IMG/VR virus record: IMGVR_UViG_3300020161_000132
Coordinates: 1-59,436 of that record
DNA from: a virus
Lineage: Duplodnaviria; Caudoviricetes
Direction: 5' to 3' (one strand)
DNA length: 59,436 nt
The first letter of the stretch is position 1. The number at the start of each line of letters is the position of its first letter. A program made the translations under genes and the position numbers. Under the pieces are notes generated by a model, which was not told where the DNA came from, did no database searches, and saw only the letters and a list, made by a program, of their open reading frames with translations. Positions 2,881 to 25,400 of the stretch are shown in pieces.

Positions 2881-3173
2881 ACGCTGGAGTTATGGATATC
2901 CCAAGGGATATCCCACTTGTGCAGGTGCATACAACGTCTGGTCGTGGATTCACGCCGGAAGAGATTGCAAAGCGCTGTGCTGATCGCCTGATGTATGTGG
3001 CTGACAGTGCGCCAATGGCTATCCGTGAACAGGCACTGGCGTTCAAAGATCACATCGAAAAGGTCGTCGCGCTCTATATGCACGAGGCTATCGCCAGTGA
3101 TCGCACAACTGTGTATAATGCGCTTAAAGATGCGGGTCACCCTGACCTTGCTGAACTGATCAGGAGGATCTGA
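2877..3173 (+). CDS. Conserved hypothetical protein
   Basis: ATGA overlap; 98 aa. Confidence 0.7.
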   Translation: MNAGVMDIPRDIPLVQVHTTSGRGFTPEEIAKRCADRLMYVADSAPMAIREQALAFKDHIEKVVALYMHEAIASDRTTVYNALKDAGHPDLAELIRRI

Positions 3174-3174
3174 C

Positions 3175-3633
3175 ATGGCTTTCACTGGAAACTTCATGGC
3201 TACGTCTTTCAAGACAGAACTCTTGAAAGGTTGTCACGACTTCACTCTCACCACTGGTGACGTATTCAAGCTTGCACTGTACACAAACTCTGCATCCTTC
3301 ACCGCTGCCACCACTGCATACACGGCGACCAACGAAGTGGCTGCTTCAGGCTCCTATGCCGCTGGTGGTGGTACTTTGACCAACATCACCGCAACAAACT
3401 CAGGGACCACGGCATTCACAGACTTTGCTGATGAGACCTTCACCACGGCAACCATCACTGCCCGTGGCGCTATGATCTACAACACCACTCCCAATACGAC
3501 TTCGTCGGCTGGCTTGACCAACCCCTGCGTTGTGATCTTGGACTTCGGTGCTGACAAGACCTCGACCGCTGGTGACTTCACCATCGTGTTCCCGACCGCT
3601 GATGCAACCAACGCCATCATTCGGATTGCATAA
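3175..3633 (+). CDS. Virion structural protein (Thr/Ala-rich, beta-rich)
   Basis: FKLALYT, YAAGG, ITARGAMIYN and LDFGADK pattern of a common phage structural family. Confidence 0.7.
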   Translation: MAFTGNFMATSFKTELLKGCHDFTLTTGDVFKLALYTNSASFTAATTAYTATNEVAASGSYAAGGGTLTNITATNSGTTAFTDFADETFTTATITARGAMIYNTTPNTTSSAGLTNPCVVILDFGADKTSTAGDFTIVFPTADATNAIIRIA

Positions 3634-3645
3634 GGTGATGCCACT

Positions 3646-3852
3646 ATGTCCACTGGATACTTCGCAAAAGTAGTCGATGGCATCGTAGAGGCTGTCATCA
3701 GGGCAGAGCCTGAGTACATCGCAGAGAACCCAACCTTCTTCCCAGAGAACTGGGTAGAGGTTCCTGACATGGATCAGTACCCAGCCATAGGGTACACATG
3801 GACCCAAGATGGCGGCTTTGTGCCGCCTCCAGTAGATGAAAGTGTAGTGTAA
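3646..3852 (+). CDS. Small tail-associated protein
   Basis: 68 aa; [13 protein letters not shown] and IGYTW..GGFVPP resemble small tail-fibre accessory proteins. Confidence 0.6.
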
Positions 3853-3854
3853 GA

Positions 3855-5201
3855 ATGGTCAAGTTCGTCAACAGAGCGAAGATGACCACATCCACCACTG
3901 GTACGGGGACTCTCACACTTGTCACGGCACTGTCTGGGTTTCAGTCCTTTGCAGCATCAGGCGTAGTCAACGCTGACATAGTCACATACGTCATTGAGGA
4001 CGGCACAGCTTGGGAGATAGGCAACGGGGTCTATACAAGCTCCGGCACGACCCTATCTCGCTCTCTCCTATCATCCAGCACAGGAAGCCTCTTGGTGCTG
4101 TCTGGCAACGCTGTGGTGTATGTGTCTGTGATCTCACAGACCATTGATGACCTGTATGCCACCAAGGCTGACCTAGCATCTCCCAGCTTCACTGGTCAGG
4201 CATCCTTCGCAGACGGCACAGCCGCCCTACCTTCGATCACCAACACGGGTGATACCAACACAGGAATACTTTTCCCCGCTGCGGATACCGTGGCTGTGTC
4301 TACGGCTGGCACTGAGCGTATGCGCGTTGATATTAACGGCAACGTGGGAATTGGAGGCACTGTTCCAGCAAGTCTTCCAAAGGTAGGCCTATATGGCGGC
4401 ATTCGCTTTTTGGCAACCGAAACTGCCGCTGCCACCTACACTGGGATTGGGTCAATTGCATTAGATACTGTAAGCATTAGCACGTCTGGCACTGAACGTA
4501 TGAACATCGGTACGGGGGGCAACATCTCGGCTGGGTCAGGCACTACAAATATTGCTTATACCATAGGCGGCGATATCTACCTACCAGCAGCCACTACGGA
4601 AGGCCGTGCTGTTCAGATTGGCAATGGAAGAACTGGAAACGGAAACGCATACATAGACTTTGTTGGTGACGCTACCTACACAGACTGGGGTCTACGCATC
4701 ATCCGCAACAACACGGGGGCTAATGCCAACAGTGAGATAAGTCATCGCGGCACAGGTGGACTTATCCTTAACGCTTTTGATAACTCATTTATCTATCTTC
4801 AGACAAACAACACTGTACGTTTTGTTGTTGGCTCTGCGGGCCAACTTGGCATTGGCGGCGCTACCTATGGCACATCTGGTCAAGTGATGACCTCTGGCGG
4901 CTCAGGTGCAGCGCCTTCGTGGAGTGATGTTGGCACGGCAATAGCGGGTCAATCTGGTGGAGGCGTTGGAACCTATCTATGGGCAAACACCAATAACTCA
5001 ACAACATATGCTCTCAATGCTACAATTGCTGGAAGTTCACTGTTGCCAACGGGCGCACAGACAAGTGATGGCGCTCCAGCTACTGCCCGCACTTCTGGAA
5101 ACGGCGCGGCTCCAGCCGGAACTTGGCAATGCATGGGAACACGGACAACCACTTCTGGAGCTATCACCAACAACGCAACACTTTGGTTGAGGATTTCGTG
5201 A
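3855..5201 (+). CDS. Tail fibre protein
   Basis: 448 aa; N-terminal [13 protein letters not shown]...WEIGNG anchor, repeated GTERMR/GNVGIG units, C-terminal GTWQCMG...TLWLRIS. Confidence 0.85.
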
Positions 5202-5599
5202 TGAACTACCGCAACGCAAAGCATATCAACAACAACCGCATTGACTGCGAGATAGAACATCCCGCCCACGGGTGGATACCATTCACTTGTGATCCAACCG
5301 ACACTGGCGCGGCGTTTGATGTTGTTGCATTGTATGATGCAATGGCCTCTGACCCCGTTACCGTTGCCTATATTCCGCCCACACAGGCAGAGCTTGACGC
5401 AGAGCAAGCTGGAGTGGTTCGTTTAACCCGTGACACCCTTCTTGCCAATGTGGTCGATCCCATTGTCTCCAACCCCTTGCGCTGGGCTGATCTGACAGCC
5501 GAAAAGCAAGCAGAGTGGGCTGCATATCGTCGCGCCTTGCTAGATGTTCCACAACAGTCTGGCTTCCCCAATGATGTTGTGTGGCCTATATCTCCATAG
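5201..5599 (+). CDS. Tail fibre assembly chaperone
   Basis: Start reassigned to ATG 5201 (TGATG overlap); EWAAYRRALLDVPQQSGFP..VVWP motif. Confidence 0.85.
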   Translation: MNYRNAKHINNNRIDCEIEHPAHGWIPFTCDPTDTGAAFDVVALYDAMASDPVTVAYIPPTQAELDAEQAGVVRLTRDTLLANVVDPIVSNPLRWADLTAEKQAEWAAYRRALLDVPQQSGFPNDVVWPISP

Positions 5600-5628
5600 C
5601 CACAATTTAACGTAGGAGGACTTGTGCT

Positions 5629-6312
5629 ATGCTTGGGTTCTTCCCTACCGCTTCAGCGCCGACAGCATCTATAGGCATACCGACAACGTATGTGTCGGTC
5701 ACTGGACTATCTGCCACAGGTTCCGTAGGAACCGTCACGGTTGTTGCTAAGGCAGTTGTCTCCGTCACTGGTGTATCCGCTACAGGCTCTTCAGGGTCTG
5801 TTACTGTCACTGCTGGAGCCAATGCTCCCGTAATAGGCGTTGAGGCTACAGGGCAGGTCGGAGCCGTCACTACTGTTGGCAAGGCCAACGTGTACCCGAC
5901 AGGGGTACAGGCAAGTGGCATAGTTAACGCCGTCACCACCACAGCAGGTGCAAACGTATACCCCGTAGGTGTGACTGCTACAGGCGCTGTCGGTACTGTC
6001 ACAACCACTGCTGGCGCAAACGCATATGTCATTGGAGTATCTGCAACAGGCTACGTTGGCTCCGTGACGTTCAAGATCTGGACAAGTATCGTTCCAGACC
6101 AAGCCCCCATCTATGGAGATATAACACCTGTGCAAAGCCCGTATTATACGGGCATACCGATATCTCAAAGCCCAAGCTACGCAAGCCTGACCCCAACCCA
6201 AGACCCTCAGTTTGTGCAGGTTCTGGAAGGGCCTTCTGCTGCATATAGCTCACTGACTCCAAGCCAGAACCCTAGCTGGGTTCAGATTGTTGCTGCGGGG
6301 TCTCCGCTATGA
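5629..6312 (+). CDS. Virion/tail protein with [11 protein letters not shown] repeats
   Basis: AGGAGG RBS; about six ~21-aa repeats followed by PxQxP repeats. Confidence 0.75.
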   Translation: MLGFFPTASAPTASIGIPTTYVSVTGLSATGSVGTVTVVAKAVVSVTGVSATGSSGSVTVTAGANAPVIGVEATGQVGAVTTVGKANVYPTGVQASGIVNAVTTTAGANVYPVGVTATGAVGTVTTTAGANAYVIGVSATGYVGSVTFKIWTSIVPDQAPIYGDITPVQSPYYTGIPISQSPSYASLTPTQDPQFVQVLEGPSAAYSSLTPSQNPSWVQIVAAGSPL

Positions 6313-7760
6313 CTCAAGCAACGGGCGGCATAATCACATCTGCCACGATTGGCGGAACCCTATATACCATCCACACCTTCACCACCTCTGGGAACCTTGT
6401 AGTCACCACGGGTGGCAGCGACATTGAGTACTTGCTTGTTGGTGGTGGTGGTACTGGTTTTAGATCAACAGCAGCAACGAGTACAGGCTGTGGAGGCGGC
6501 GGTGCTGGTGGCGTCCGAAGAAACATTGGGTCACCAATTTCCCTTACTGCGGCAACGTACCCTATCGTTGTTGGTGGAGGTGGCGCTGCTCCCGGATCCG
6601 GGTCAGCAAACAGCGGTGTAGCATCCACATTTAACGGCTTATCAGCCGTTGGCGGCGGCGGCGGTGGTGGTGGCAATGGCGCGGCTGGGGGTTCCGGCGG
6701 TGGTTCTGGCTCTAGTGGTAGCGCTGGTGCTGGGACAGCGGGTCAGGGATTTGCTGGTGGTGCTGGATATTTCTCCGTAATTGGCGGTAACGCCGCTGGG
6801 GGCGGAGGCGGTGCGTCTATTGCTGGGTCGGCTGGTACTTCTGGTGGGGCTGGTAAAGGTGGCAATGGCGTATCTCTAACATTTGCATCGGCTACTGCGA
6901 CAATTTATGGCGGTGGCGGAGGCGGATCTGGAGGCGGAACACTTAGCGTACCCCCTGCTGGAGCGGCAGGTACCGGCGGCGGAACGGCAGGTTCAAATAG
7001 CGGAACTACCACAGCAGGGACTGACGGACTAGGTGGTGGTTCTGGTGCCACAAGACTTGGTAGGAATGTCGGAAAGGGCGGTGATGGCGTTGTCATCATC
7101 AGATATGTAACAAACATTCCAGTATCCGTCCCTGTCACTGGTGTGTCCGCCACTGGCAATGTTGGCTCTGTAACCGTCACTGGAAAGGCAGTCGTCCCTG
7201 TCACTGGTGTGACGGCTACGGGTCAAGTCGGCACTGCAAGTGCATATCTTCAACAACGTGTTCTTGTTACAGGAGTCACTGCCACAGGCAATGTTGGCAC
7301 AGTAAATGTCAACGTCCCGACATATGTTACAGGGGTTTCAGCCACAGGTCAGGTCGGGGCTGTCACTGTCTATCTTAACCTTAACGTCCCCGTTACTGGT
7401 GTTGCGGCAGCAGGTCAAATTGGGACTGCCACTGTATACTTGAACCTAAATGTGCCTGTCACTGGTGTTGCAGCCACGGGGTTTGTTGGTTCCGTAACCA
7501 CAGTTGCAACAGCAAATGTTTATGTAGTTGGCCTGTTTGCAACTGGGCAGGTAGGAACTGTCAGCACTGTAGCAAAGGCTATAGTTTATCCAGTTGGCGT
7601 GTCCGCAATAGGCCAAGTCGGTTCTGTCACAGAGTTCCTTTGGACGAGCGTTTCTCCAGATCAAGCCCCCGATTACAGTCCGATTGCACCGATACAATCT
7701 TCAGGGTATAGTGCAGTAACTCCTACCCAGAACCCTATCTGGACCCCAGTTGTGACATAA
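6309..7760 (+). CDS. Glycine-rich-domain tail protein with VTGVxATG repeats
   Basis: [19 protein letters not shown] and [10 protein letters not shown] glycine-rich domain fused to a repeat region like 5629..6312. Confidence 0.8.
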
Positions 7761-7771
7761 GGTGGTGTACC

Positions 7772-10054
7772 ATGGCTAGCACATCTACTACGAATACCGG
7801 GATTGAAAAACCGGGGCTTGGGGAGCAAGCGGGTACTTGGGGTACCACTGCAAACACCGACTTCGACATTATTGACCGCGCCTTATCCGGGGTTACTTCG
7901 GTATCGCTGACGGGCTCTTCCGATAGCACCACCATCGTGACGACCAACAATGTGCTTTCAGTTGGGCAGAACCGGACTTTTGTCCTTACAGGTACCCCAA
8001 CAGGGACATTAGTTTCACCATTTGCGCTTACTGTGACGCCCTCAACGGCACAAAAGCTGTACTTTTTCCGCAACACGACTTCGGCCTATATCAATATTAT
8101 CCAAGGTACGGGGGCTACAAAGGCCCTGATCTACCCAAGCGCCACCGCTATCGTATACCTAGACGGCGCAAACAACGCCTTTGACGTAAGCACCGCGTTT
8201 AACTACCTGTCCACAATCAATGGCGGAACTGTCGCGGGCGCTGCTACGTTTAACGGTATTACAAACTTCACGAGCACCGTGGGTATCGGCTCTGCTGCAC
8301 CAACTGCCAGCCTAGAGCTCAAGGCTGACGATACGCCCGTAGCTCAGTTTACCGCGTATATCTCTGGCACCACGATGACTGTGTCGGGGGTAGCATCTGG
8401 CACTCTGGCAACTGGGCAATACATCTTCGGCGCAGGCGTATCTGCAAATACGTACATTACCACTGGGTCAGGCGGCGCGGGGACATATACGGTTAGCGCT
8501 TCACAGACTGTCGCCACCGTAGGTTCGCCAATCACAATGTACGCGATTGCTGCGACCAGCAACCGTATCCGCTTCACCGATTCCGATACCACTGTAGTGG
8601 CGGGCCAGCCGCTTGGTACGGTAGAGTTCTACACTTCAGACGCCTCCACTCCCGGCGCAGGTGTTGGCGCATTTGTCACCGCCATTTCCGAAACTGCTAC
8701 CCCAGACACGGCGATTGTTTTTGGTACCCGTAACGATACTGCGGGTGGTGTTGGTGCTGTTGAAGTCGCCCGCCTTACGAGCGGGGGGTACATGGGGCTA
8801 GGTACGGCTGCACCAGCAGCCCCGCTCCATCTCGTTACTACCGTAGCTGAAGCAGTTATCGTAGAAAATTCGGATGCTGGCGCTGCATCCGCGCCAGAAG
8901 TTGTCCTCTACCGTAATAGCGCGTCTCCTGCCGCCGCAGATGTTCTCGGAGCCGTGGTATTTAGGGGTAAAAATAGCCTCGCAGTTGATAAAGATTATGC
9001 TCAAATTGGGTCACGCATCGAAGATGCGACAACTGCCACTGAAGATGCGAGCGTCTATTTCCAAGCTATGAAGGCGGGCACGCTTACCGACCGCCTTGTT
9101 CTTGGATCGACTGCTATGCAGCTTGCAGTGGACTACAACCTCGGCATTGGCACCACATCTCCAGATACCGCTATTGAAGTTTCTGGGAGTACTTCGCCAA
9201 TCGGTGCCTACACGGGGTATATCTACGACGGCACCACCTCGGGAACTGCTGGCACTGTTCTTAACGTAACTGGGGTAACTTCCGGCACTCTTGCTGTTGG
9301 ACAGTATGTCTTTGCAGCTACCATAGACCCAAACACCTACATTACGGCGTTTATCACGGGTACTGGTGGCGTAGGCACATACCGCGTGAGCGTTTCGCAA
9401 GCCGCTGGTACCTCGGGCAGTCCAATTACCGTATCTACTATCGCCGCTTCCTCAAACCGTATTCGCATCACAGACACTGACACCGCAGTGCAAGCAGGGC
9501 AACCCGCGGGCACGCTTGAGTTCTACACCAACGATACCGATGCGCCCGGTGCAGGTGTTGGTGCTTTCGTATCCGCAGTCTACACAAGTACAACCCCCGA
9601 TATTGATCTAGTATTCGGTACTCGCGATAACCCCGCCGCAAACGCTGGGTCCGGCGCTACGGAGCGGATGCGTATTTCGCAGTCTCTGATTAGCTATACC
9701 ATCCCGCAGGCCATCTCCGGAGCTAGCTACCTCGCTGCGGGCGCAAGCATCACAGCTACTGCTGCTGACGATGGTACAAAGACTACAGGTACGTACTCTC
9801 CGACCCCTATCGGAGGAAACATGAAACGTATCATTAACCAAGGAACCTTCTCGATTGCGGCCCCCACAGCGGCTGGTGACTACACGATGATTATCCAGAT
9901 CACAAATGCTGCAACCCTTGCTGGCACGATTACCCTTACCGGGTTTTCTAAAACCACAGGCTCCGCACTAACTACTACAGCAAGTAATGACTTCCTCTTG
10001 TACATTACAAAACTCAATGGGTTTACTCTTGGAAACGTGGTGGCCCTGCAATGA
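7772..10054 (+). CDS. Long tail fibre with internal duplication
   Basis: 760 aa; N-terminal [13 protein letters not shown] anchor; two copies of an ~140-aa unit. Confidence 0.85.
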
Positions 10055-10680
10055 GCCTCCCTCTAATGCCTATGAGCAACCCTATCTCTACCGCACCAAC
10101 AGTAGCGTTTGGTAATGACTACTTTGGACGGCCAACAACCCTAACTGACTTAGGAGCTGACAATCCTAACCGCGTTGTAGTTCTCGCTGCATCTAGCGGT
10201 GGCCTCGGTACAAACACGATCTCCATCGGCGGCGTATCTCAGACTGTTTGGCATCCCCAGTCAAACGGCACTGTGCTTTCTAGCGGCACAAGCTACACCC
10301 AGTTTGCTATTGCGCGAGTTCCGACTGGAACATCCGTGTCTGCCTCTATCGCTAACGGCACTGTCTGTATGTGGTACACAATCATCGGGCTAAACGACCT
10401 TGTGCCGCGTTCGGGAACCCAAGATGCTTCTGGAACTCCCTCAGGGGGTGTCGTGATTATGGAAGAAGGCAGCGCTATTATTGCAAACCTATACGCAAGT
10501 AACGACAACAACTCCTTCACATGGACTTCGCCCATGATCCGCACGGTGAACAACACCTCACTTGGCCCATCCCGCGGTGCATCATCTGCGTATCTCCAAA
10601 ATTCATCCGCCGGGGCGTATACACTCACGTGTGCCATGGGGTCAGGAACTATGTACATGGGCGCTATAGTGCTAAGGTAG
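10051..10680 (+). CDS. Putative tail-tip / receptor-binding accessory protein
   Basis: ATGA overlap with the fibre gene; Ser/Thr/Gly-rich, 209 aa. Confidence 0.55.
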
Positions 10681-10689
10681 GAACTAGGA

Positions 10690-11274
10690 ATGCTTAACAG
10701 AGACCAGATCATCGTGGCCATGATCCTTGTCTTAGGGTTCCTGTTATCTATCGTCATCGCCAACGCACAGACTACACCGATAGACTGCCCCGAAGGTTAT
10801 ATCTGCACTTGGTCAGGGTCGGACGGCTCGGTCACCACCAATGGTGAGATGATTACCACGGTAATCTCTCCCCCGCCTACGGCTGTGTCCCCCCAATTCT
10901 CTGCGGGCAACGGCAATGACCTTTGCACTGTTGGTGTATCGGGGGCTGTGCAAACACAAATTCTTGGCCTGTCTGCTGGCAAAACTGTCCGCGATATGAA
11001 CTGTGAGCGCCTCAAGAACGCCAAGGCGCTCTACGATATGGGGATGAAAGTCGCCGCGGTGTCCACAATGTGCCAAGATGAGCGCGTCTTTCAGTCGATG
11101 TTAGACGCAGGAACACCGTGCCCTTACGACGGCATGATCGGCGAAGAGGCAAAAGCGGCGTGGGAAGCTGACCCTGATCGCGCCGAGGGCACAGCGAAAG
11201 GGCGGCTTAATGACAAAACAAAATTGGGTATTGGCGCTCTGCTTGGTGTCTTGGGCCTCCTTATCGCACTCTGA
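10690..11274 (+). CDS. Exported Cys-rich protein with C-terminal membrane anchor
   Basis: Signal peptide ending ANA-Q; six Cys; hydrophobic C-terminus LGIGALLGVLGLLIAL. Confidence 0.75.
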   Translation: MLNRDQIIVAMILVLGFLLSIVIANAQTTPIDCPEGYICTWSGSDGSVTTNGEMITTVISPPPTAVSPQFSAGNGNDLCTVGVSGAVQTQILGLSAGKTVRDMNCERLKNAKALYDMGMKVAAVSTMCQDERVFQSMLDAGTPCPYDGMIGEEAKAAWEADPDRAEGTAKGRLNDKTKLGIGALLGVLGLLIAL

Positions 11275-12079
11275 TCCGTACACCTACGGCGCAACCGATA
11301 ATGCGGCATCTGATGGCCTTTCTTGGGTCATGGCTAATGTGATTCCAGACATACCCGGGCTAGATATCAGCGGTGTTTTTTATCAATACACCATCGACAA
11401 AGACCCAGCCGCAGATGCCTTGGTCCATGTGCAGAATGAAAACGCCTTGGGCGATGGCTACATATTCCGCGAGACAGATGATTGGTCTGGTATCGCCGGA
11501 AACACAATCACAAAGGGCGTCCCTGTAGCTAACATCCCAATCGAGTATTGGGGACTTGGATCAATTGAGGTCGAAGGCGAAGGCACAATCTCTGACGCCT
11601 CTGTGGTCTACTCCTTTCGTGTTGACGAATGCGCTAATGCGCAGTCAAACCCTTCCTGCGATGGCTATGTGCCCCCAGTGACTCCTGTAACTTTTGACGA
11701 ACAGGAAACATACGATGCCTTGGAAGACGAGGCATACAAGATCGCAAGTCAAAAAACTGACCAAGAATATCAAGAGGATAAGGAATCCACAGAGGAGCAG
11801 AGCGACGACAAAGAGCGTAAAGCCCGGCTTGAACGTGGGTTAGCCGCTTCAAAAAACGCGCTGGCACTAGCCAACGGTGTTTCTCAGGATGCTATTATCG
11901 CCTCAATGAGTTATACTGATGATATGAACGCTTACTATGCTGCCGAACTTGATGGTGGCTCTTACGCAGATACAACCGTGCTAGTTGATGGAAAACTCCC
12001 CGAAAACCAGCGCGGGTTAAGGAACGGGCTAGCGCAGCAAGTTCTGTATGAGCAGATCATAGACCTGCAATACGAATAG
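11210..12079 (+). CDS. Exported protein (beta-rich domain, Cys pair, acidic helical tail)
   Basis: Signal peptide ending SHS-D; DECANAQSNPSCDGY; acidic coiled-coil-like segment. Confidence 0.7.
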   Translation: MTKQNWVLALCLVSWASLSHSDPYTYGATDNAASDGLSWVMANVIPDIPGLDISGVFYQYTIDKDPAADALVHVQNENALGDGYIFRETDDWSGIAGNTITKGVPVANIPIEYWGLGSIEVEGEGTISDASVVYSFRVDECANAQSNPSCDGYVPPVTPVTFDEQETYDALEDEAYKIASQKTDQEYQEDKESTEEQSDDKERKARLERGLAASKNALALANGVSQDAIIASMSYTDDMNAYYAAELDGGSYADTTVLVDGKLPENQRGLRNGLAQQVLYEQIIDLQYE

Positions 12080-12090
12080 GAGATGTCAAG

Positions 12091-12585
12091 ATGAAATACT
12101 TAGCAGTCGTTATTCTGGCCGCACTGCCCCATATGGCGTCCGCCGAGGGTGTCCAAATTGAAGGAAACGTCCAAGCAAAGTGCGTCATCCGCACGGATCG
12201 CACGGGCGTATATGGTAACCCCACAGCAAACAAACTGAGCGCAAGTCCCGCTGATGGCGGTGTCACCCCGATTATCCGGTATGATGTTGCTTTGGCGGGG
12301 TACTACGTTGCGCGTATCACGCATCCTACTGCGTTTTCAACAAGCCCCACTTTGACAGATACTGTCGAATGGACAGGCGGTGCATCCGTATCGAGTGTGT
12401 CAAACCCACAGATGTCAACATACGATGCGACGAAAGTTGAGTATGACTCGACGACCGAGTTTAACTTGGCTGTAGCTGGGACAACGTGGTTCAAAGTCGC
12501 TTCAACTGCGGAATACGGCTACAACAAGGCGTTTCCTGCTGGGACGTATCGCGCTGTCATTCAAGCGGACTGCATCGCAAAATGA
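12091..12585 (+). CDS. Fimbrial/Csu-type pilin-like exported protein
   Basis: AGGAG RBS; signal peptide ending ASA-E; VQIEGNVQAKC N-terminal strand; C-terminal FPAGTYRAVIQADC. Confidence 0.6.
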   Translation: MKYLAVVILAALPHMASAEGVQIEGNVQAKCVIRTDRTGVYGNPTANKLSASPADGGVTPIIRYDVALAGYYVARITHPTAFSTSPTLTDTVEWTGGASVSSVSNPQMSTYDATKVEYDSTTEFNLAVAGTTWFKVASTAEYGYNKAFPAGTYRAVIQADCIAK

Positions 12586-12962
12586 AGCTAGCAGTGGCAA
12601 TGATCTTGTTTGCAACGGGTGCGGGCGCACACGACATGACGCCCGCATACCCCATCCTGCATCAGTCTTCTGTGCCGCAGATCATGCAAGCCGATTTGTC
12701 ATTGTATAATGCCCGTGACGATGTTGAGTACTACTCCATTAGCGTCTTGGACGGTAACATGAACCCTATCCAATTCGCCTCGGCGCAGCGCGTAATGCAC
12801 GTCCCTCCGGGGAGCCGGAAAGACTTTGAAATTTATATCCGCGAAGCTGACGTAGAGCGTGTCGTCTACGTATGCACAACATCCATGCTTCGTGCGGGGG
12901 AAAAGAGCAACACTATCATATCGTCTCGCATCTGCTCACGTTTGGACGGTGAAAAGGCATGA
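12582..12962 (+). CDS. PapD-like single-domain periplasmic chaperone-like protein
   Basis: Start reassigned to ATG 12582 (ATGA overlap); signal peptide ending AGA-H; MTP, LSLYN and VPPGSRKDFEI resemble a pilus chaperone N-domain; Cys pair. Confidence 0.5.
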   Translation: MKLAVAMILFATGAGAHDMTPAYPILHQSSVPQIMQADLSLYNARDDVEYYSISVLDGNMNPIQFASAQRVMHVPPGSRKDFEIYIREADVERVVYVCTTSMLRAGEKSNTIISSRICSRLDGEKA

Positions 12963-13363
12963 AGAGGTTGGCTGTTATCTTGGTATTGGTTGGCGGGGCG
13001 GCACAGGCTGACAGCACTTCGCTGGCACTACAGCTCCCCACTGCGTCAATGAGCTATCAAAGCGACAGTTTCAGGGCCAATAACTTAGATTGCAGCATGG
13101 CAATCGGCGGCTCCACAAACCTAGAAATCGGTGTGATGGGTGGCGTCAACAATCTTGGCGGTGCGGAGCTTGCACCACAGACAAAAGACATCGGGATATT
13201 TGCAAGGATTGTCATCCCTCTTAATGCACCTAAGTCGCGGATTGACTGCAATCAGCTCTACCTGCTGGAACTGCAGCAGCGCCGACTAGAGATACAGCAA
13301 CTCCAAGCGGAACTTGACGCAATGAAAGCACTGCAAGACGAGCAGATGAATTTCGAACCATGA
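12959..13363 (+). CDS. Exported protein with amphipathic beta-hairpin and C-terminal coiled coil
   Basis: Signal peptide ending AQA-D; TNLEIGVMG and DIGIFARIVIPL strands; Cys pair; heptad-rich tail. Confidence 0.7.
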   Translation: MKRLAVILVLVGGAAQADSTSLALQLPTASMSYQSDSFRANNLDCSMAIGGSTNLEIGVMGGVNNLGGAELAPQTKDIGIFARIVIPLNAPKSRIDCNQLYLLELQQRRLEIQQLQAELDAMKALQDEQMNFEP

Positions 13364-13860
13364 CAGAAAGCCGTGATCTTGGGGAAGTGCTTGAAGAGGT
13401 TGAGGGCCTAAAAGATAAGGCTTTCACCATCCTCGGCCTTCGGATGACACCAACAACCATTGGTGCCGCTATCGCATTTCTATCCACTATCTGCGGTACG
13501 TTATACGGCGGGTTTGTCATGTACCAAAAGGTCGAAGAGGTCGCATCTATGGACCTTGGGGCCTACCAACAGCAGATGGAGGTCATGGACACCAAGGTGC
13601 AGGAGGCACTCGACTACGCCCGTGACATCAAGAACGGCTTGAAGGACGACATCATCAGGCTTGAAAAACAAGTCGATAGAGCAGAAGATGCTGTACGAAA
13701 TAACGAAGAAAAAGTAAGAGCTTTAATCGACGATGCTGAGACGCGGTTCGAGACAAGGCGTGACCAACTTCGTATGTCACAAGATCAGGACATGAAGGAG
13801 CTGGAGGACAGGCTAACGAACAAACTGCAGCGGGCCTTAGACAACCCGCTCGCCCAATAG
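13360..13860 (+). CDS. Membrane-anchored coiled-coil protein
   Basis: One hydrophobic segment (IGAAIAFLSTICGTLYGGFVMY), then ~100 aa of heptad pattern. Confidence 0.75.
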   Translation: MTESRDLGEVLEEVEGLKDKAFTILGLRMTPTTIGAAIAFLSTICGTLYGGFVMYQKVEEVASMDLGAYQQQMEVMDTKVQEALDYARDIKNGLKDDIIRLEKQVDRAEDAVRNNEEKVRALIDDAETRFETRRDQLRMSQDQDMKELEDRLTNKLQRALDNPLAQ

Positions 13861-13871
13861 AGGACGACGAA

Positions 13872-14060
13872 ATGAAAGAAAAACTACTTTGGCTGGTCTT
13901 CGTCGCTGCTATCGGTGCAGTTTTCTATTTTTCCGCGAACGGATTCTATCGTTACCCGTGCCAGAACCCAAGCAACTGGACTTTGTCCGAATGCCAACCG
14001 CCCCTTTGCACCGCTGCAAAGGAATGCCCTGAAGACTTGATAGGAGATGTAAATGGCTAA
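13872..14060 (+). CDS. Small membrane-anchored Cys-rich protein
   Basis: N-terminal TM; YRYPCQNP.NW...ECQPP.C....ECPEDL with four Cys. Confidence 0.7.
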   Translation: MKEKLLWLVFVAAIGAVFYFSANGFYRYPCQNPSNWTLSECQPPLCTAAKECPEDLIGDVNG

Positions 14061-14316
14061 GGAAGACGCAGCAGTTATGGAAGCCAAGCTTCGCTATTTC
14101 ATTGGCGTGGCTCTGACCGTCATCCTTGGCGGTACTATCTTTGTAATCTTGTACAGCTTGGTATTCGTGACCCAGCCCATGGGCGCATCCAGCGAAAATG
14201 ATCGCAAGTTCTTTGAGCTATTGACGCCCATCGCGTCATTCATCGTGGGTGCGCTCGGCGGTGTCCTTGCGGCCAGCAACAGCAAAGTCCAGCAGGACGA
14301 GGAGAAGGCAGAATGA
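14053..14316 (+). CDS. Putative holin (2 TM)
   Basis: Two hydrophobic helices, charged C-terminus, located upstream of the endolysin. Confidence 0.55.
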   Translation: MAKEDAAVMEAKLRYFIGVALTVILGGTIFVILYSLVFVTQPMGASSENDRKFFELLTPIASFIVGALGGVLAASNSKVQQDEEKAE

Positions 14317-14495
14317 TTGGTAAACTTGTCGGCGCTCTGATGGGGCGTAAGCTGAAAGAGAAGATGGCTGATGCTGTGCTGGACAAAGTCGATCTGCCTG
14401 ACCCAGTGGAGAATGCCATCAAAGTTGCAGTCACGGGTAACGTAGGCGACCTGCTTGGCGCGGTAGCAAAAGGCGTGGAGAAGAAAAAGAAATGA
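14313..14495 (+). CDS. Small lysis-region hypothetical protein
   Basis: ATGA overlaps at both ends; 60 aa. Confidence 0.6.
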   Translation: MIGKLVGALMGRKLKEKMADAVLDKVDLPDPVENAIKVAVTGNVGDLLGAVAKGVEKKKK

Positions 14496-15322
14496 CCCTG
14501 ACCAAAGACCACGTCATTCACATCCTGCATGGCAACGCAGATGCAGCGGCATGGGCAGATGCTGCTATGGAGATCTTGCCCAAGTATGAGATCAATACCC
14601 CCAACCGCATTGCTGGCTTCTTTGCCCAGTGTGGTCACGAGTCCATGAACTTCACGGCCTTGTCGGAGAACCTCAACTACCGCGCAGAGACCTTGGAAAA
14701 GTTGTTCTCCAAATACTTCTCAAAGGCTGGGCGCAACGCTGCAGACTACGCTAAGCAGCCTGAAAAGACCGCCAATATCATCTACGGGGGCCGTATGGGC
14801 AACGTGCAAGAAGGCGATGGCTACCGCTTTCGTGGGCGCGGCGTAATCCAATTGACCGGGCGCGACAACTATACTGCGTTTGGAAAAAGCGTTGGCATGT
14901 CGCCGGAACAAGTGATCGACTATGTGACCACCAAAAAAGGCGCGTTGGAATCGGCTTGCTGGTATTGGAACTCTCGCAACATCAACGCTGCGTGTGATGC
15001 CAATGACATCGTCAAGATGACCAAGCTGGTCAATGGTGGGACAATCGGCCTTGAAGATCGCCGCAAGCACTATGAGTCCGCTCTGGCCGTTCTTGGTGGC
15101 GCTACTCCTGCACCGATTACTAACGCTGCGGCCATCCCCGGCGTCTTGAAGAAGGGTTCTACGGGCGAAGCAGTCAAGCGGATGCAAGCTGAACTTGGCC
15201 TTGAGGATGACGGTGTATTCGGCCCCGGCACTGAGGCTGCTGTAAAAAAGTGGCAAGCTGCCAATGGCCTTGCCGCTGATGGTATAGTCGGACCAAAGAC
15301 ATTGGCTAAACTCTTGGCGTAA
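14492..15322 (+). CDS. Endolysin: glycoside hydrolase family 19 with C-terminal peptidoglycan-binding domain
   Basis: AQCGHES, ENLNY, FRGRGVIQLTGRDNY, VNGG..GL.DR; C-terminal DGVFGPGT...DGIVGPKT. Confidence 0.92.
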   Translation: MTLTKDHVIHILHGNADAAAWADAAMEILPKYEINTPNRIAGFFAQCGHESMNFTALSENLNYRAETLEKLFSKYFSKAGRNAADYAKQPEKTANIIYGGRMGNVQEGDGYRFRGRGVIQLTGRDNYTAFGKSVGMSPEQVIDYVTTKKGALESACWYWNSRNINAACDANDIVKMTKLVNGGTIGLEDRRKHYESALAVLGGATPAPITNAAAIPGVLKKGSTGEAVKRMQAELGLEDDGVFGPGTEAAVKKWQAANGLAADGIVGPKTLAKLLA

Positions 15323-15350
15323 GTTATAATCCCGGCAACAGGAGGCTGCT

Positions 15351-17558
15351 ATGCCGTTAATGAAGCTTCAGTTCCAGCCGGGACTTAACCGCGAAACCAC
15401 TGCTTACGCAAATGAAGGTGGTTGGTGGGACTCGGACAAGGTCCGTTTTCGTATGGGCTACCCAGAGAAAATTGGTGGTTGGGCTAAGAAAAACACTGCG
15501 GCCCTACTGGGGAGCTGCCGCGCCATCCATCCGTGGGTGGCGCTTGATAACAGTGAGTACATTGGGCTCGGTACTTCTCAGAAATACTATGTATACGGCA
15601 ACGGTACATACAACGACCTTACACCTATCCGGGCCACTACCACTGCAGGGGCGGTAACTTTTGCTGTCGCAAGGACTACACTAGCCGCTGCAATCACCAG
15701 CCCTAGTGCAACTTCACTTACGCTTACATCTGGCGCTACGTTTCCCTTGGGTACAAGTACACCTGCAGTTGGGGGGCTTATCCTCATCGACTCTGAGCAG
15801 ATTCGGTATACAGGTAAAAGCGGCAACACGCTTACGGGCCTTGTACGGGGCGTCAACGGTACAATTGCCACTACTCACACAAACGGCACTACAGTTTTTT
15901 GCGCCACCCTCACCGTGACAAACACAGGTCACGGCGCTGTGCAGAATGACTTTGTGACTTTTTCTGGTGCAGCGAGCCTCGGCGGTAACATGACTGCCGC
16001 AGTGCTAAACCAAGAATACCAGATCACCGATACCATTTCAGCTAGCGTCTACATGGTAGAAGCCCGCACTGCGGGTATAAGTATCGCGGCTGCAACAACC
16101 TCAACAGGGGTAAGTTCTGCCTATGCAGTATTCTGCAGTGCAGGAGATACTACGACTGGTGGGGCGTCGACGGTCGGCGTGTATCAGATTAACACGGGCC
16201 TAGGCACATCTCTAATCGGCGCTGGCTGGGGCGCAGGTACTTGGAGTGGTACAGCAACTGGAGGTTTTGCGGCCACAGGCTGGGGCGCTGCGGCTAGCTC
16301 TTCGATCACGGGGGCTTCGCTTCGTCTCTGGAGCCACGATAACTACGGCCAGAACTTGCTATTCAACGTGCGCGATGGGGGTATCTACTACTGGGATAAG
16401 AGCGGGGGTTATGCCCGCGGCACGGCAATATCGGCACTTATCGCTCCTTACTCACCTACAGGCGCTGTCGGCAAAGCCCCGACTATCGCTAAACAGGTTC
16501 TAGTCAGCGACAACGACCGCCACATCATTGCTTTCGGGTGCGACGACGAGTTCACCCTTGGAACGCAAGACCCGTTGCTGATCCGCTTTAGCGCGGCGGA
16601 AAGTATTACTGAGTGGCGTACACTGGCTACTACAGACGCAGGGTCTATCCGTATCGGTTCCGGTTCGCTTATCGTCACTGCGGTAGAAACTAAACAGCAG
16701 ATTATCGTCATCACGGATACTTCCGTGCACGCCATGCAGTACCTAGGGCCTCCGTTTACTTTTGGCCTGACGATGGTCTCCGACAACATCTCTATCTCCG
16801 GACCTAACGCGGCTATTGCAGTGGACGACTCGGTATACTGGATGGGTGAAGGCGACTTCTACATCTACAACGGTATTGTTTCGCAGGTACCGTGCGATGT
16901 GAAAGACTACATCTTCTCTCGTATTGACCCTACGCAGACGCAAAAAGTTACCGCTGGGGCGAATATCAACTACGGGGAAGTCTGGTGGTTCTATCAGAGC
17001 AATACCGAGGGCGTGACTGACAACGATTCCTATGTCGTTTACAACTACCAGCAGCGTATCTGGTATTACGGCTCATTGACCCGCACTGCTTGGACGCACA
17101 AGAACCTAGGCATTTTCCCAATTGCCGTTGGCACAGATAACTATGTCTACCTGCACGAGCAGGGCTTTGACGACGGCAGCACAGACCCTGTATCCGCTAT
17201 TGGCGCATATATCGAATCTTCTGGGCAAGACCTTGGGGATGGTGACTCGTTTGCCTTCATCTGGCGCGTCATTCCTGACCTTACATTCCGTAACTCTACG
17301 TCAGATATCCCCACCGCGTATATGACCGTGCAAATGTCTAACTTCCCCGGTGCAGATTTCACTGGCGCACCTGCAGGATACAGTAACGGCAGCACTATCA
17401 CACGGACAGCGACCTACCCAGTTGAACAATTTACAAATCAGGTCTTCACGCGCTTGCGGGGACGTAGCTTTACGTTCCGTATCGAAAGCAACCAAGTCGG
17501 AACTGGGTGGCGTCTCGGTGCCCCGCGCCTAGATATTCGCACTGATGGCAAGAGGTAG
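15351..17558 (+). CDS. Tail nozzle / stabilisation protein (tail tubular B-like)
   Basis: AGGAGG RBS; 735 aa, beta-rich; KVRFRMGYPEKIGGW near N-terminus and WRLG..RLD...DG.R at C-terminus; precedes the ejection genes. Confidence 0.65.
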   Translation: MPLMKLQFQPGLNRETTAYANEGGWWDSDKVRFRMGYPEKIGGWAKKNTAALLGSCRAIHPWVALDNSEYIGLGTSQKYYVYGNGTYNDLTPIRATTTAGAVTFAVARTTLAAAITSPSATSLTLTSGATFPLGTSTPAVGGLILIDSEQIRYTGKSGNTLTGLVRGVNGTIATTHTNGTTVFCATLTVTNTGHGAVQNDFVTFSGAASLGGNMTAAVLNQEYQITDTISASVYMVEARTAGISIAAATTSTGVSSAYAVFCSAGDTTTGGASTVGVYQINTGLGTSLIGAGWGAGTWSGTATGGFAATGWGAAASSSITGASLRLWSHDNYGQNLLFNVRDGGIYYWDKSGGYARGTAISALIAPYSPTGAVGKAPTIAKQVLVSDNDRHIIAFGCDDEFTLGTQDPLLIRFSAAESITEWRTLATTDAGSIRIGSGSLIVTAVETKQQIIVITDTSVHAMQYLGPPFTFGLTMVSDNISISGPNAAIAVDDSVYWMGEGDFYIYNGIVSQVPCDVKDYIFSRIDPTQTQKVTAGANINYGEVWWFYQSNTEGVTDNDSYVVYNYQQRIWYYGSLTRTAWTHKNLGIFPIAVGTDNYVYLHEQGFDDGSTDPVSAIGAYIESSGQDLGDGDSFAFIWRVIPDLTFRNSTSDIPTAYMTVQMSNFPGADFTGAPAGYSNGSTITRTATYPVEQFTNQVFTRLRGRSFTFRIESNQVGTGWRLGAPRLDIRTDGKR

Positions 17559-22373: not shown

Positions 22374-22430
22374 CCCTCTAGCCCAACACTACTAATGCAC
22401 GTATAGTATCTCCAACTATGGAGTTTGAGT

Positions 22431-25400
22431 ATGGGTAAGTTCCAAGCCCCCGGGCGCATGAGTGGTCGCACTTACAATTTTAACATCCGGGGTGACCTCC
22501 CAACTGAAGTTGAGCGTGGCCGTATCGCGCAGCATATCGCGGATAGCGAGACTGCATTTGCCCAGCAATACCAAGAGACTATGGGTCAGCCGCTTGCGGC
22601 TCCTGAAGATGATGGCACTGCAATCGGGCGCGGTTTTGAACTTGGCAAAGCTGGCGCTTACTCTCGCCTCGGCAGCGCCGCGGAGTATTTAGGCTCTGGA
22701 CTCGGCATTGATGCTCTGCGCGACTACGGCAAGGGTATGCGGCAATCTGGGGATACTGAAAGCTTCCTAGAAACCCTGCGGCAACCCGCCCCAACAGAAC
22801 TGAAAGATGTAAAAGGTCTTGGCAGTGCACTTACCTATCTTGGTGAAGGCGTGGGCCAAAGCGCTCCTGAGATGTTTGCACCTCTTGCTGCTACTGCAGT
22901 GGGTACAATGCTTGGAGGTCCAGTTGCGGGGGTAGGCGCGGGCGCAGCTACAGCCTTCCCGACCTTTTTCGGTGGTAACGTCCAACGGCAGGAAGCAGAA
23001 GTTGCGGCAGGCCGCAAGTCCGAAGTCGATGTTGCTTCCGCGGTAACTAGTGCAATCGGCCAGTCGGCGCTAAACGCCATTGGTGATAAACTGCTGCTTG
23101 GTGGGTTCCTGAAACCCGGCCAGAAATGGCTAACACGCACTGCGCTCGGCACTGTCGAAGGCGCTACGACCGAAATACCGACAGAAATCACGCAGCAAAT
23201 CCTTGAGCGCAAACAGGCGGGCCTGCCTCTTGATAGCGACGAAGCTATCAATGAGTACATAAACGCAGGTGTTCTTGGCGGCGTGTTGGGCGGCGGTGTT
23301 CGTGGCACTACGGCAATGTTCCAAGGCCAAGCAGCGGAAGATGATACGCCTCCGCCCCCCACAGAAGAAACGCAACTGGAGCTCCCGCTCGAGTACCGCC
23401 CCCAACTGCAACCGGGGCAAGAAGAAGGGGATTTATTTTCTATCGCCCCTCCGAAGCCCCGCGAGCCACAAACTGAAGAAGAAAAGTACGCAGAGTGGAA
23501 AGCTGAATCTGACGCAGCTAAAGCTAAAGTAGCTAAAGCTAAAGCCGATGCAGACGCCGCTCAAGCCGCCGCTGACGCTGCCAAAGGAACCCCCGATGCC
23601 CCCGCTGCGGCTAAAGCGGCTAAGCAAAAGAAGATCGTAGCAAGCCAAACAGAGAAGCAGGCAAACGCTGTCGATAAAAAGAAACCCGCCGAACCGTCAG
23701 TGGTAGTCGCACCGCCCGTAGAAGTGCAGCAAGAGTTGTTCCCAGAAACGCCTGCTGTTGAAACGCCTGCTGTTGAAACGCCTGCGCTAGAATTTTCTTA
23801 CGGAAAAGAGCGCGACAAAACCACGGCAGGAGAAGCTAGGCAAGTCATTGCTACTGGTAATAACGGCACTGTCGGGGCTGTAGAAGGTACAATTCTGAAG
23901 AATGCTGATGGAACCCCTTCATCGAAAATTCAAATCTATAACTCCAGCCTTGCAGACGAGCTTCGCGGTAATGGTCTTGGTACGCAAATGTATCAGGAGT
24001 TTATTTCCAAGGCGGCAAGCGAAGGACTCTCAGTAGTTTCGGATACGTCTGTAACTCCTCCCGCCGCCCGCGTTTATGCCGCGCTTGGAAAACTGGGCTA
24101 TGGGGTAAAGCAAGCTGAAAATACCGTGGCGGAGCCTGACGGACGCATCAAAACGCAAGATGGGTCGCCTGTATTTGAAATCGTGTCTACTCCAAATGAG
24201 GTGCAAAATGTCCAAGCTGTTAACCCTGAAGCAGTTGGAGCTAGCACTGAAGACGCTGGACTCAGCACGGAAACTGGAGGATCTGTCCCCGCTGCCGCTG
24301 GACCCGCCCAAGGGGCTGAAGAATCTGTCAATGGCGGAGTGGGCGAGCCTGCAGATGTTACTGACGGACTTGGAGAACCAACGAGCGAACAGCCCGCTGC
24401 ACTAAGCAAAAAAGTCGCGGACGTAGCTGATAAAATCCGTAATACCTACGGCATGGAGCTTACCCCTGCACAACTGCAAGAGCTGGAAGGCTACTTCGCT
24501 CCGGAACCAGAAGGCCCAAAAACTGATTGGGCTGCGTATGCTCGTAAAGCACCGGAGACAGCGGAAGAAGCGGGTAAGACTAAACTTGTCGATCTCACAC
24601 CGCGGCAAATCAATGACTTTGCGCAGAGCCTTGGGTCCACGGATCTTTCAGGGTTCCTCAACAAGCTGCTTACGACACCCACTGCCCCCACCGTAAGCAT
24701 GACAGAAACTAAGATACCGGGATACACGGAAATCCGCGAGCTGCAGCTTGTATTAGCGGAACGTCAAGCCATTGCAAACGACACCGCACAAGAAGCTTTG
24801 GAAATCGCTTGGAAGAACAGCGTACCAGAGGAGTTCATCGACGACTTTGAGACGTGGCAACCTGACGCGGAAATGCAGCGTAAACTGCCTGACATCACTA
24901 CGGCTGATGACAAAGGCAAAATCCTCGAACTTGTCCAGCGCACCACCAAGCAACTCGTAGGCGAAGCAAACAAGCCTGCAAGAAACGCACAGCTTTACTT
25001 CTCTCGGTTCCGCCGTCCGATAGACGCCATACAGTATATGGCCGAACTTATCCGTATGCAGGCACCTCAGTACAAGGCGCAGGAAATTGAAGGCGTAAAG
25101 CCAGAAGCTTCAGAGAAAGCTTTCAACCAAGGGCACGGTATGACTACTGCGCAAAATGCTTTGGATTGGGTTATGGCTAACCTTGATCCAAGCACACAGG
25201 CCCAAGTTGCGCTCTTAGTTTCCAAAGAACTAGCCCTAGCCCCTGCCGCTGCTGGGCGGGTATCGGCTTCTACACGCCGTATGGCTCAGTTCGACGAGGG
25301 CCGCGAAGCGTATCAAGGAGAAGTAGATACGCAGGTCGAAAAAGAAAGCGTAGAGGCGGCGCAAGCCAAACGCGAACTGCAAGCTGCTATCTCGGAAGCT

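Follow-up and report, generated by a model that had tools for sequence, protein, structure and literature searches.

The six genes at positions 10690-13860 of the virus record IMGVR_UViG_3300020161_000132 (Duplodnaviria; Caudoviricetes), the whole 59,436 bp of which is referred to here as the window, form a cassette that, to judge from sequence comparison, belongs to a widespread and undescribed phage module. The genes are called o1 to o6 in their order along the DNA. Three of them, o1, o2 and o6, appear to make up the conserved unit, while o3, o4 and o5 appear to be an insert specific to the window-type version. It is suggested here, tentatively, that o1-o6 form a late-expressed, Sec-exported lysis accessory which spans the envelope and works like a spanin. 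A first-pass annotation of the same DNA had described the cassette as a minimal chaperone-pilin system without an usher. The part of that description which stands is the conserved, phage-borne exported cassette; the pilin and chaperone identities hold only weakly, and o3-o5 are a lineage-specific insert.

Organisation and conservation of the cassette

All six genes lie on the plus strand, within a single run of tightly packed genes that leads from the tail fibres to the endolysin. They are o1 (10690-11274, 194 amino acids (aa)), o2 (11210-12079, 289 aa), o3 (12091-12585, 164 aa), o4 (12582-12962, 126 aa), o5 (12959-13363, 134 aa) and o6 (13360-13860, 166 aa). Overlaps of 4 nucleotides (nt; ATGA) join o3 to o4, o4 to o5 and o5 to o6, o1 and o2 overlap by 65 nt, and an 11-nt gap separates o2 from o3. 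The open reading frame (ORF) coordinates and the neighbours, tail-fibre-like genes on one side and a lysis block on the other, agree with the earlier account of six overlapping or closely spaced genes between tail fibres and lysis genes. A scan of the window returned no promoter-like or terminator-like signals above shuffled controls.

Signal peptides were scored with a crude in-house script rather than SignalP, the script recognising an N-terminal hydrophobic segment followed by small residues at -3 and -1. It was positive for 12 of 13 homologues of o1, 13 of 13 of o2, 30 of 31 of o3, 28 of 30 of o4 and 15 of 15 of o5, and in the four rows that it missed the N-terminus is short or aberrant. 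Of the 14 homologues of o6 two alone were positive, as expected of an anchor that is not cleaved. Likely cleavage sites, placed by eye, fall between ANA and Q in o1, SHS and D in o2, ASA and E in o3, AGA and H in o4, and AQA and D in o5. As in real signal peptides, the n-, h- and c-regions are retained although the sequences themselves drift freely. In the homologue alignments the conserved cysteines (Cys) are paired in all five exported proteins, which would therefore act in the oxidising periplasm. By these measures the Sec-type signals and the even Cys numbers of the first-pass annotation are borne out, and the sixth gene is, as it proposed, a transmembrane (TM)-anchored coiled coil, with one hydrophobic span followed by a heptad-rich helix.

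Known families offered little guidance. No credible match to o1-o6 was found in Pfam, NCBIfam, PADLOC or PDB profiles; the PADLOC models gave only weak coiled-coil noise, and the PHROG matches are confined to families of unknown function. A Pfam Inhibitor_I36 match (22.1 bits, against a cut-off of 21.1) covers only a CPEGYIC stretch of the window clade and was rejected. Profile-profile comparison (hhalign) among the six cassette alignments found no paralogy apart from the signal peptides. Secondary structure, where it is mentioned below, is a crude Chou-Fasman and hydrophobic-moment estimate.

Relatives of the cassette are numerous. In a set of 5.8 billion proteins o3 has 569 homologues, most of them exactly 162-167 aa long and 60-99% identical, and clustering at the 50% level leaves 87 representatives. 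When viral contigs were scanned with o3 as the seed, 39 loci were obtained, and the o1-o6 order is kept in all of them, with absences only at contig ends. Scanning of viral contigs with the o1 alignment matched at least 599 stretches, at least 584 of which encode o1 relatives. Eighty loci were kept for analysis, and all six genes are present in order in each of the 51 whose sequence continues for 3.6 kb or more beyond the o1 start. Gene order is held down to 27-60% identity between loci. Given the 569 homologues of o3 and an order maintained across such divergent loci, conservation of the cassette is far beyond chance. Conserved synteny, the lack of which would have told against the first-pass annotation, is present in both sets of loci.

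In the divergent loci L019, L024, L027, L028, L030 and L039 (loci found in the scans carry numbers with the prefix L) nothing else within 6 kb on either side resembles any of the 79 ORFs of the window. Because their flanks are unrelated in this way, it would seem either that the cassette is conserved to a far greater degree than the DNA around it or that it is passed from one phage lineage to another. A scan of prokaryotes with the o1 alignment, using one genome per species, gave 21 loci, all of them on contigs of metagenome-assembled genomes (MAGs) labelled with many phyla, including one archaeon, and none in an isolate. We read these as phage contigs binned with cells, since the longer contigs carry phage genes.

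Six of these 21 loci (L045, L049, L050, L053, L059 and L060) are without o3-o5 and are composed of o1, a longer second gene ('big o2'), none to four small TM or secreted proteins, and o6. The big o2 proteins (484-713 aa) differ from the window o2 in their N-terminal domain and contain a long linker that is acidic or S/T-rich. The core trio without o3-o5 is found also in the pelagiphage HTVC115P, with positional analogues in HTVC023P, Mosig, CRP-810 and MW202675. It is the recurrence of the trio in such variants that points to o1, o2 and o6 as the conserved unit.

A tblastn search with the o1 core found 13 GenBank phage records, namely six pelagiphages (HTVC115P, HTVC202P, HTVC033P, HTVC023P, Baldr and the myophage Mosig), two roseophages (CRP-207 and CRP-810), two records of Ralstonia phage RSP15 and three metagenomic phages; the same search with o2, o3 and o6 gave no match among GenBank phages. 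The o1-core genes are labelled hypothetical, with two exceptions: the CRP-810 gene is named 'OmpA family protein', and in MW202481 the match extends into the neighbouring gene, 'transport protein tonB'. Annotation of the module region is poor in SAR11 and Roseobacter phages; all GenBank homologues seen are 'hypothetical' or misnamed. Apparent annotation errors were noted at 5213-5635 and 3609-3869 of CRP-810 (L089) and at 1639-2403 and 3013-3440 of MW202675 (L001). An 86-aa lipoprotein ORF beside gp51 of CRP-810 is unannotated, and MW202675 has no calls for a 254-aa signal-peptide protein, a holin-like gene and p60, a small gene described below. Literature searches returned no description of the o1-o6 module. 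OmpA, lysozyme, spanin and holin are not mentioned in the accessible part of the CRP-810 paper (PMC11288001), and the main text of the HTVC027P transcriptome paper (PMC12753301), as far as it is accessible, holds no per-gene data.

Lysis context and possible role of the module

One option offered by the first-pass annotation, envelope remodelling before lysis, is the best match to the genomic context. Endolysins near the module were sought with a panel of seven members, giving counts that are lower bounds and have no matched random-gene control: a panel endolysin starts at most 2.5 kb from o6 in 21 of the 34 related loci whose sequence runs on for 2.5 kb or more beyond that gene (16 GH19, two GH24 and three GH108). 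After dereplication at 85% nucleotide identity, 18 of 27 clusters are endolysin-adjacent. Neighbours confirmed with Pfam are GH19 in the window, L042 and L053, GH108 in L034 and L060, Phage_lysozyme in L049 and MW202481, and Peptidase_M15_3 in HTVC023P. Holin-like TM proteins, a protein with an EF-hand and a TM segment and, in L049, a Lipase_3 gene are interleaved with variants of the module. The module thus keeps an endolysin beside it although the endolysin family changes, as would be expected of a component of the lysis region. In contigs with T4-type replication genes the module is a separate operon on the opposite strand, situated in L039 and L027 among genes for a family-B DNA polymerase, a UvsX-like recombinase and a ligase. 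In 11 of 16 T4-type loci, which represent about three independent groups, NATAAATA is present at most 130 nt upstream of o1 (chance 2.7% per locus); we take this to be a late-promoter motif.

A regular-expression scan for a lipobox in all six frames of the window found no candidate near the cassette and only two antisense chance matches (27.5 and 42.2 kb), so that no canonical o-spanin or u-spanin is recognisable in the window. About 15% of phages, or about one in seven with Gram-negative hosts, are reported to be without recognisable spanins or another outer-membrane breaker (10.1101/515445, accessible in part). An i-spanin has an N-terminal TM segment, an N-in/C-out orientation and a periplasmic domain made up mostly of helices or coiled coil (Kongari 2018, PMC6139136, accessible in part). 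The predicted topology of o6 resembles this arrangement, the protein consisting of a cytoplasmic N-tail, one TM span (residues ~31-55), a heptad-rich coiled coil of ~110 aa and an invariant C-terminal A-[LI]-D-N-P-L.

In the spanin-like role proposed here, a core complex of o1, o2 and o6 would span from the inner membrane through the periplasm, with o1 anchored by its tail and o6 by its N-terminus (N-in/C-out), both in the inner membrane. The conserved C-terminus of o6 and either the C-terminal domain of o2 or the core of o1 would bind one another, and the flexible linker and variable head of o2 would extend outward through the peptidoglycan toward the outer membrane. To this the window lineage would add periplasmic subunits, the beta-rich o3 and o4 and o5 with its beta domain and coiled coil. 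The complex would act at or after breakdown of the peptidoglycan by the neighbouring endolysin, and would collapse or act on the outer membrane, breaching or detaching it. It would in this way do the outer-membrane job of the lipoprotein spanins, for which the window has no recognisable gene.

Several observations weigh against a spanin-like role, beginning with the uncontrolled endolysin counts already given. Nine of the 27 clusters, mostly contigs of 80-119 kb, have no panel endolysin nearby and carry replication or auxiliary genes instead, the neighbours of the module being a DnaB-like helicase, sugar and radical-SAM enzymes, a 2OG-Fe oxygenase or long tail fibres. On a quick tree of o3 (51 distinct rows) the endolysin-adjacent label changes only five times, against a shuffled mean of 16.4, with at least three changes forced by supported branches, and on this account adjacency appears to be largely inherited within clades and not to represent 18 independent events. 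An outer-membrane anchor is not evident in the window version, in which there is no lipobox and no cassette protein ends in an aromatic residue. The topology of o6 depends on a weak positive-inside count (+3 before the span and +1 after it in the window copy) that is ambiguous in other clades. Furthermore, o1 and o3 are 50-88% identical across otherwise unrelated contigs. Spanins are as a rule much less conserved than this, and such conservation fits a conserved host target or an enzymatic role better than it fits a spanin. Finally, an 80-aa TM-coiled-coil protein and a lipoprotein of 71-86 aa lie directly upstream of o1 in CRP-810 and MW202675 and look like an ordinary spanin pair. The module is therefore not a spanin replacement in those phages, and to call it 'the spanin' in general would be too simple. 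It may be an elaboration able to operate with or without a lipoprotein, or it may serve another purpose in the envelope at lysis.

A broader proposal, which we hold to be possible but rather doubtful, is that the o1-o2-o6 core is a new multi-protein envelope machine, one that uses no lipoprotein and bears no relation to spanins, pili or curli. It would be exchanged among aquatic phages of several morphotypes, including relatives of the abundant pelagiphages, and would open or re-model the Gram-negative envelope, with o1 binding a universally conserved host target and o2 making a host-specific contact. The o3, o4 and o5 proteins would then be a new periplasmic sub-assembly, possibly a strand-exchanged polymer of immunoglobulin (Ig)-like domains.

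We consider it unlikely that the module serves in superinfection exclusion, receptor masking or the control of lysis timing, whether as an envelope complex that blocks phage entry or adsorption through the o2 head or as a periplasmic sensor that controls the holin in the manner of T4 RI. T4 is known to have periplasmic proteins for exclusion and for lysis inhibition, and a variable o2 N-domain combined with a conserved o2 C-terminus, o1 and o6 would suit a shared scaffold whose binding is host-specific. That o1 is so strongly conserved also suggests a conserved host target. As to position, tail-fibre genes are found just upstream in podovirus-like contigs, and in large contigs the module lies among accessory genes. 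Exclusion genes, however, are usually single, small and early, whereas the module consists of three to six tightly coupled genes in a late-looking position. The adjacency that is kept across variants is with endolysins and not with tail fibres, HTVC023P and L042 having capsid or other genes upstream, and the PADLOC models, as noted above, gave no more than coiled-coil noise.

If the spanin-like reading is true, an exchangeable exported-protein module found in at least 584 viral-contig stretches would fill part of the outer-membrane-breaking gap. If the module is not a lysis device, it would be a widespread phage means of re-engineering the host envelope. Either way, there are concrete genes in the cultivable phages CRP-810, HTVC115P and HTVC023P.

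Features of the proteins and of neighbouring genes

The first-pass annotation drew chiefly on o3 and o4. The o3 protein consists of a signal peptide and a beta-rich domain of ~146 aa. Its claimed N-terminal alternating strand ending in Cys (VQIEGNVQAKC) and C-terminal G-x-Y strand are both present and are conserved in the alignment, the second as PAGTYRAVIQADC, which has the form P-x-G-x-Y with Gly at -14. These strands, together with the beta-rich character of the protein, could suggest that o3 is a pilin-like donor-strand polymer and o4 a minimal PapD-like chaperone, the two giving rise, perhaps via o5, to an usher-free periplasmic or surface fibre comparable to pelagiphage curli. In a feature search of the ESM-Atlas with o3, the match at rank 23 (score 0.95, with 182 features in common) was a cluster in which 15% of the members carry SCPU; this is a lead only. 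Of the genes o3-o6 only o3 has its own Shine-Dalgarno-like site, whereas o4-o6 are translationally coupled, and for this reason o3 is probably the most abundant of the added subunits, which would fit a fibre. There is, in addition, the precedent of a fibre-secretion module in myo- and podovirus pelagiphages (PMC9599517, accessible in part).

A fibre of this kind is nevertheless improbable, and o3 does not emerge as a member of a pilin family. No Pfam, NCBIfam or PDB-profile match to o3 was found, and the SCPU hidden Markov model (PF05229) matched none of 31 o3-family members at E values up to 10. In local hhalign comparisons with natural domains from gammaproteobacterial genomes, which were made for SCPU, PapD_N and CsgG/CsgF alike, o3 scored 0.4% against 20 SCPU domains and aligned over only 16 columns of the final P-x-G-x-Y strand, compared with 100% for a split-half SCPU control. 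The two cysteines of natural SCPU domains are ~25-35 residues apart near the N-terminus, a spacing not matched by the single conserved pair of o3, C31 and C161 (of 164), which lie in the N-terminal and C-terminal strands. This pair would link the first and last strands and so suggests a closed, self-complemented sandwich and not a groove awaiting a donor strand. Some long proteins with repeated o3 matches (P0263, P0273 and P0274) are DUF11/Ig-repeat proteins and were read as cases of compositional similarity. Contacts derived for o3 from mutual information (143 sequences, Neff 53) mostly reflected the phylogeny of the signal peptide and were dropped.

The proposed likeness of o4 to the N-domain of PapD holds only weakly. 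Against 13 natural PapD_N domains o4 gave an hhalign value of 34% (E 4e-4, 54 columns), while the other five cassette proteins gave 0.1%, and the match is a short one that falls on two strands, 'L.L.N....V' and 'P....V.PG....F.IYI', which are presumably generic to PapD-like/MSP/E-set Ig domains. The protein, which has 73 homologues, is a signal peptide followed by one single beta-rich domain of ~107 aa with one Cys pair (C98, C118), and searches with it were negative in Pfam at E values up to 1 and in PDB profiles. As the first-pass annotation had stated, there is no usher of ~800 aa in or beside the cassette, nor is there one in the related loci inspected. Comparison of o1-o6 with 13 natural CsgG domains and one CsgF gave at most 0.8%, Pfam was negative for them, and no curlin homology was found. 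It also counts against a fibre that o3-o5 are dispensable for the module family overall. Both o3 and o4 are probably beta-rich, Ig-like proteins. After signal cleavage o4 is predicted to begin with an invariant His (residue 17), part of the motif H-[EDQ]-[MF]-x-P-x-Y-P; all 30 aligned homologues have it, as do the divergent loci. Such a His at the start of the mature protein is the hallmark of copper sites of the 'histidine brace' or CopC type.

It is very improbable that o1-o6 are virion or tail-accessory proteins with hydrophobic N-termini that are not cleaved export signals, for although the genes lie within the structural region directly after the tail-fibre genes and are conserved to a degree comparable with structural genes, the n- and h-regions and the small -3/-1 residues are kept in five consecutive proteins despite sequence drift, the paired conserved Cys argue for the periplasm, and in T4-type contigs the module lies among replication genes.

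The o1 protein has a signal peptide, a Cys-x5-Cys and S,T-rich N-terminal stretch, a PPPTA motif, a four-Cys domain of ~100 aa and a C-terminal hydrophobic tail that is likely an inner-membrane anchor. The four-Cys domain is near-invariant in the family, with 65 invariant columns in an alignment of 13 sequences of 51-88% identity. Its invariant cysteines are C79, C105, C128 and C144, and the window clade has C33 and C39 in addition. The protein is related to phrog_20531, a family of unknown function (E 1.3e-12). An ESM-Atlas search with the o1 core found only unnamed viral clusters, and a PDB-profile match of the o1 linker to antibody light chains (E 1.3e-4) is compositional. Longer forms of o1, numbering 558 proteins, have longer low-complexity N-termini and no informative fused domain; thiolase and ammonium-transporter Pfam matches on three of these rows were taken as gene-call artefacts.

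The domains of o2 are a signal peptide, a beta-rich N-domain, one C-x8-C-x-G-Y unit with the conserved cysteines C141 and C150, an acidic helical linker and a conserved C-terminal domain ending in LAQQVLYEQIIDLQYE. The N-domain is variable, and the o2 C-terminus is conserved, as are o1 and o6. The C-terminal domain is common to the big o2 proteins (hhalign 84%, E 7e-6, against nine C-termini), and single comparisons gave 90% for L053, 85% for L050 (over the N-domain) and 60% for HTVC115P. In HTVC023P, Mosig and MW202481 the second gene shows no detectable relation to o2 and is a positional analogue only. Searches of PDB profiles with the o1, o2 and o5 alignments identified no family. One big o2 protein (L053:8465-10606) has, as counted by eye, ~15 tandem C-x(3)-[NDS]-P-L-x(4)-C-x-G-Y units, of which the window o2 has one; this repeat had no match in the families searched.

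The 65 nt at 11210-11274 (plus strand) are dual-coding, specifying the hydrophobic tail of o1 and the signal peptide of o2 in two frames. The overlap is of exactly 65 nt in the window, L005, L013, L019, L024, L028, L030, L037 and L045, and of 71 and 74 nt in L060 and L059, respectively. Its 65-nt length is constant between loci that are only ~50% identical in protein. In L053 and L049 the genes do not overlap, and the o1 tail is likewise absent. An odd 'SYSYS' c-region seen in many o2 signal peptides mirrors the 'LLLLL' of o1. The pair is an unusually clean example of two hydrophobic targeting segments in overlapping frames.

The o5 protein comprises a signal peptide, a beta-rich part of ~75 aa with one Cys pair (C45, C97) and a C-terminal heptad helix of ~35 aa, and is related to phrog_37374, also of unknown function (E 4.5e-10). 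Its C-terminal residue is not aromatic; outer-membrane barrels carry an aromatic residue at that position. A homologue of o6 in HTVC115P is 36% identical to the L060 copy (E 6e-17). Another is gp51 of CRP-810 (hhalign 82%), labelled 'lysozyme' in GenBank and by its sequence a TM-coiled-coil protein.

Four further genes on the plus strand make up the adjoining lysis block. The first, s62 (13872-14060), encodes an N-terminal TM or signal segment and a Cys/Pro-rich peptide of ~38 aa with the family motif YRYPCQ[ND]P..W...EC.PP.CTA. It has no lipobox in the window clade, and its homologue in L056 (L056:363-617) has a classical one, LLVGC, so that s62 may be an o-spanin-like protein that lost or gained lipidation. 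A two-TM protein (14053-14316; phrog_25359, E 3.9e-13, function unnamed) is called holin-like from its topology and position. The 60-aa product of p60 (14313-14495), amphipathic with a Lys-rich tail and retained beside the endolysin in relatives, could by analogy be a disruptin-like candidate. The endolysin itself (14492-15322) matches PG_binding_1 (4e-17), Glyco_hydro_19 (2.7e-6) and the endolysin family phrog_181 (8.5e-74). The small protein that recurs in related loci, with an N-terminal EF-hand motif ahead of a TM segment, lies inside or just after the module in lysis regions (L034:7770-8081, L053:10616-11059, L045:5222-5569 and L042:11062-11352). The copy scanned, that of L034, matches Pfam EF-hand_5 (E 2e-7), and the protein could be a holin or antiholin that responds to calcium. 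The Lipase_3 gene of L049 (10962-11696, E 1e-16) lies between the module and a phage lysozyme on a MAG-binned phage contig and may encode an outer-membrane-directed lysis enzyme.

The window takes in an entire virus record, with an estimated completeness of 99%. Its genes for a large terminase, a portal, a family-A-type DNA polymerase and a primase-helicase, together with tail-fibre-like genes at 3855-10680 and genes of ejection or internal-virion type beyond 15351, indicate on sequence grounds a lytic, podovirus-like phage. A 2315-aa ORF at 22425-29372, after the ejection-protein-like genes, presumably encodes a giant internal virion or ejection protein. Near-identical DNA was found only in DNA sequencing runs, from 13 studies labelled mostly freshwater or riverine and also wastewater, aquatic and marine; two of the runs may represent the source sample itself, and there were no RNA runs among the sequencing runs listed. 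The closest GenBank record is MW202675, a phage from a spring-water metagenome, which matches 25% of positions 10000-15400 at 70% identity, over the lysis genes.

Comparison with known systems

Two-component spanins (lambda Rz/Rz1, T4 PseT.3/PseT.2) share with the module a location in the lysis region and an inner-membrane protein of the o6 type, with a single span, a coiled-coil ectodomain and a conserved C-terminus. The partners of o6 are exported and have conserved Cys, and the window has otherwise no recognisable gene for disruption of the outer membrane. The module differs from these spanins in that the window has no outer-membrane lipoprotein partner and in its three to six proteins rather than two. 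It has no similarity to any PHROG named as spanin, its sequence conservation is much higher, and it coexists with a spanin-like pair in CRP-810 and MW202675.

The resemblance to chaperone-usher pili of the archaic Csu/SCPU type lies in o3, a secreted, beta-rich protein of ~150 aa with an alternating N-strand and a G-x-Y C-strand, in the small secreted Ig-like o4 adjacent to it, and in the weak PapD_N match and the Atlas lead. The differences are the lack of an usher, the one domain of o4 in place of the two of PapD-like chaperones, the different Cys pattern of o3 and its lack of an SCPU model or profile match, and the status of the o3/o4 pair as an insert that the wider module can do without.

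The nearest precedent in kind, although it is unrelated to o1-o6, is the curli type VIII secretion system cassette, which is described as common to myo- and podovirus pelagiphages (Wittmers 2022, PMC9599517, accessible in part). Like the module, it is a multi-gene exported cassette of abundant aquatic phages that keeps a fixed order in large T4-type and small podovirus-type genomes. Unlike it, the o1-o6 module is found in lysis regions and has no cellular homologues detected, all 21 matches in the genome collection being MAG contigs, those inspected of which carry phage genes.

Other means of completing lysis are also on record. The disruptin gp28 of phiKT is an example of how the last step is taken by other lysis-region genes where Rz/Rz1 are lacking (10.1101/515445), and the u-spanin gp11 of T1 is an alternative outer-membrane disruptor (Kongari 2018, PMC6139136), as far as the accessible parts of these two papers show. 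Both are single small proteins, a cationic peptide in the first case and a lipoprotein with a C-terminal TM segment in the second, whereas o1-o6 are a multi-protein exported set.

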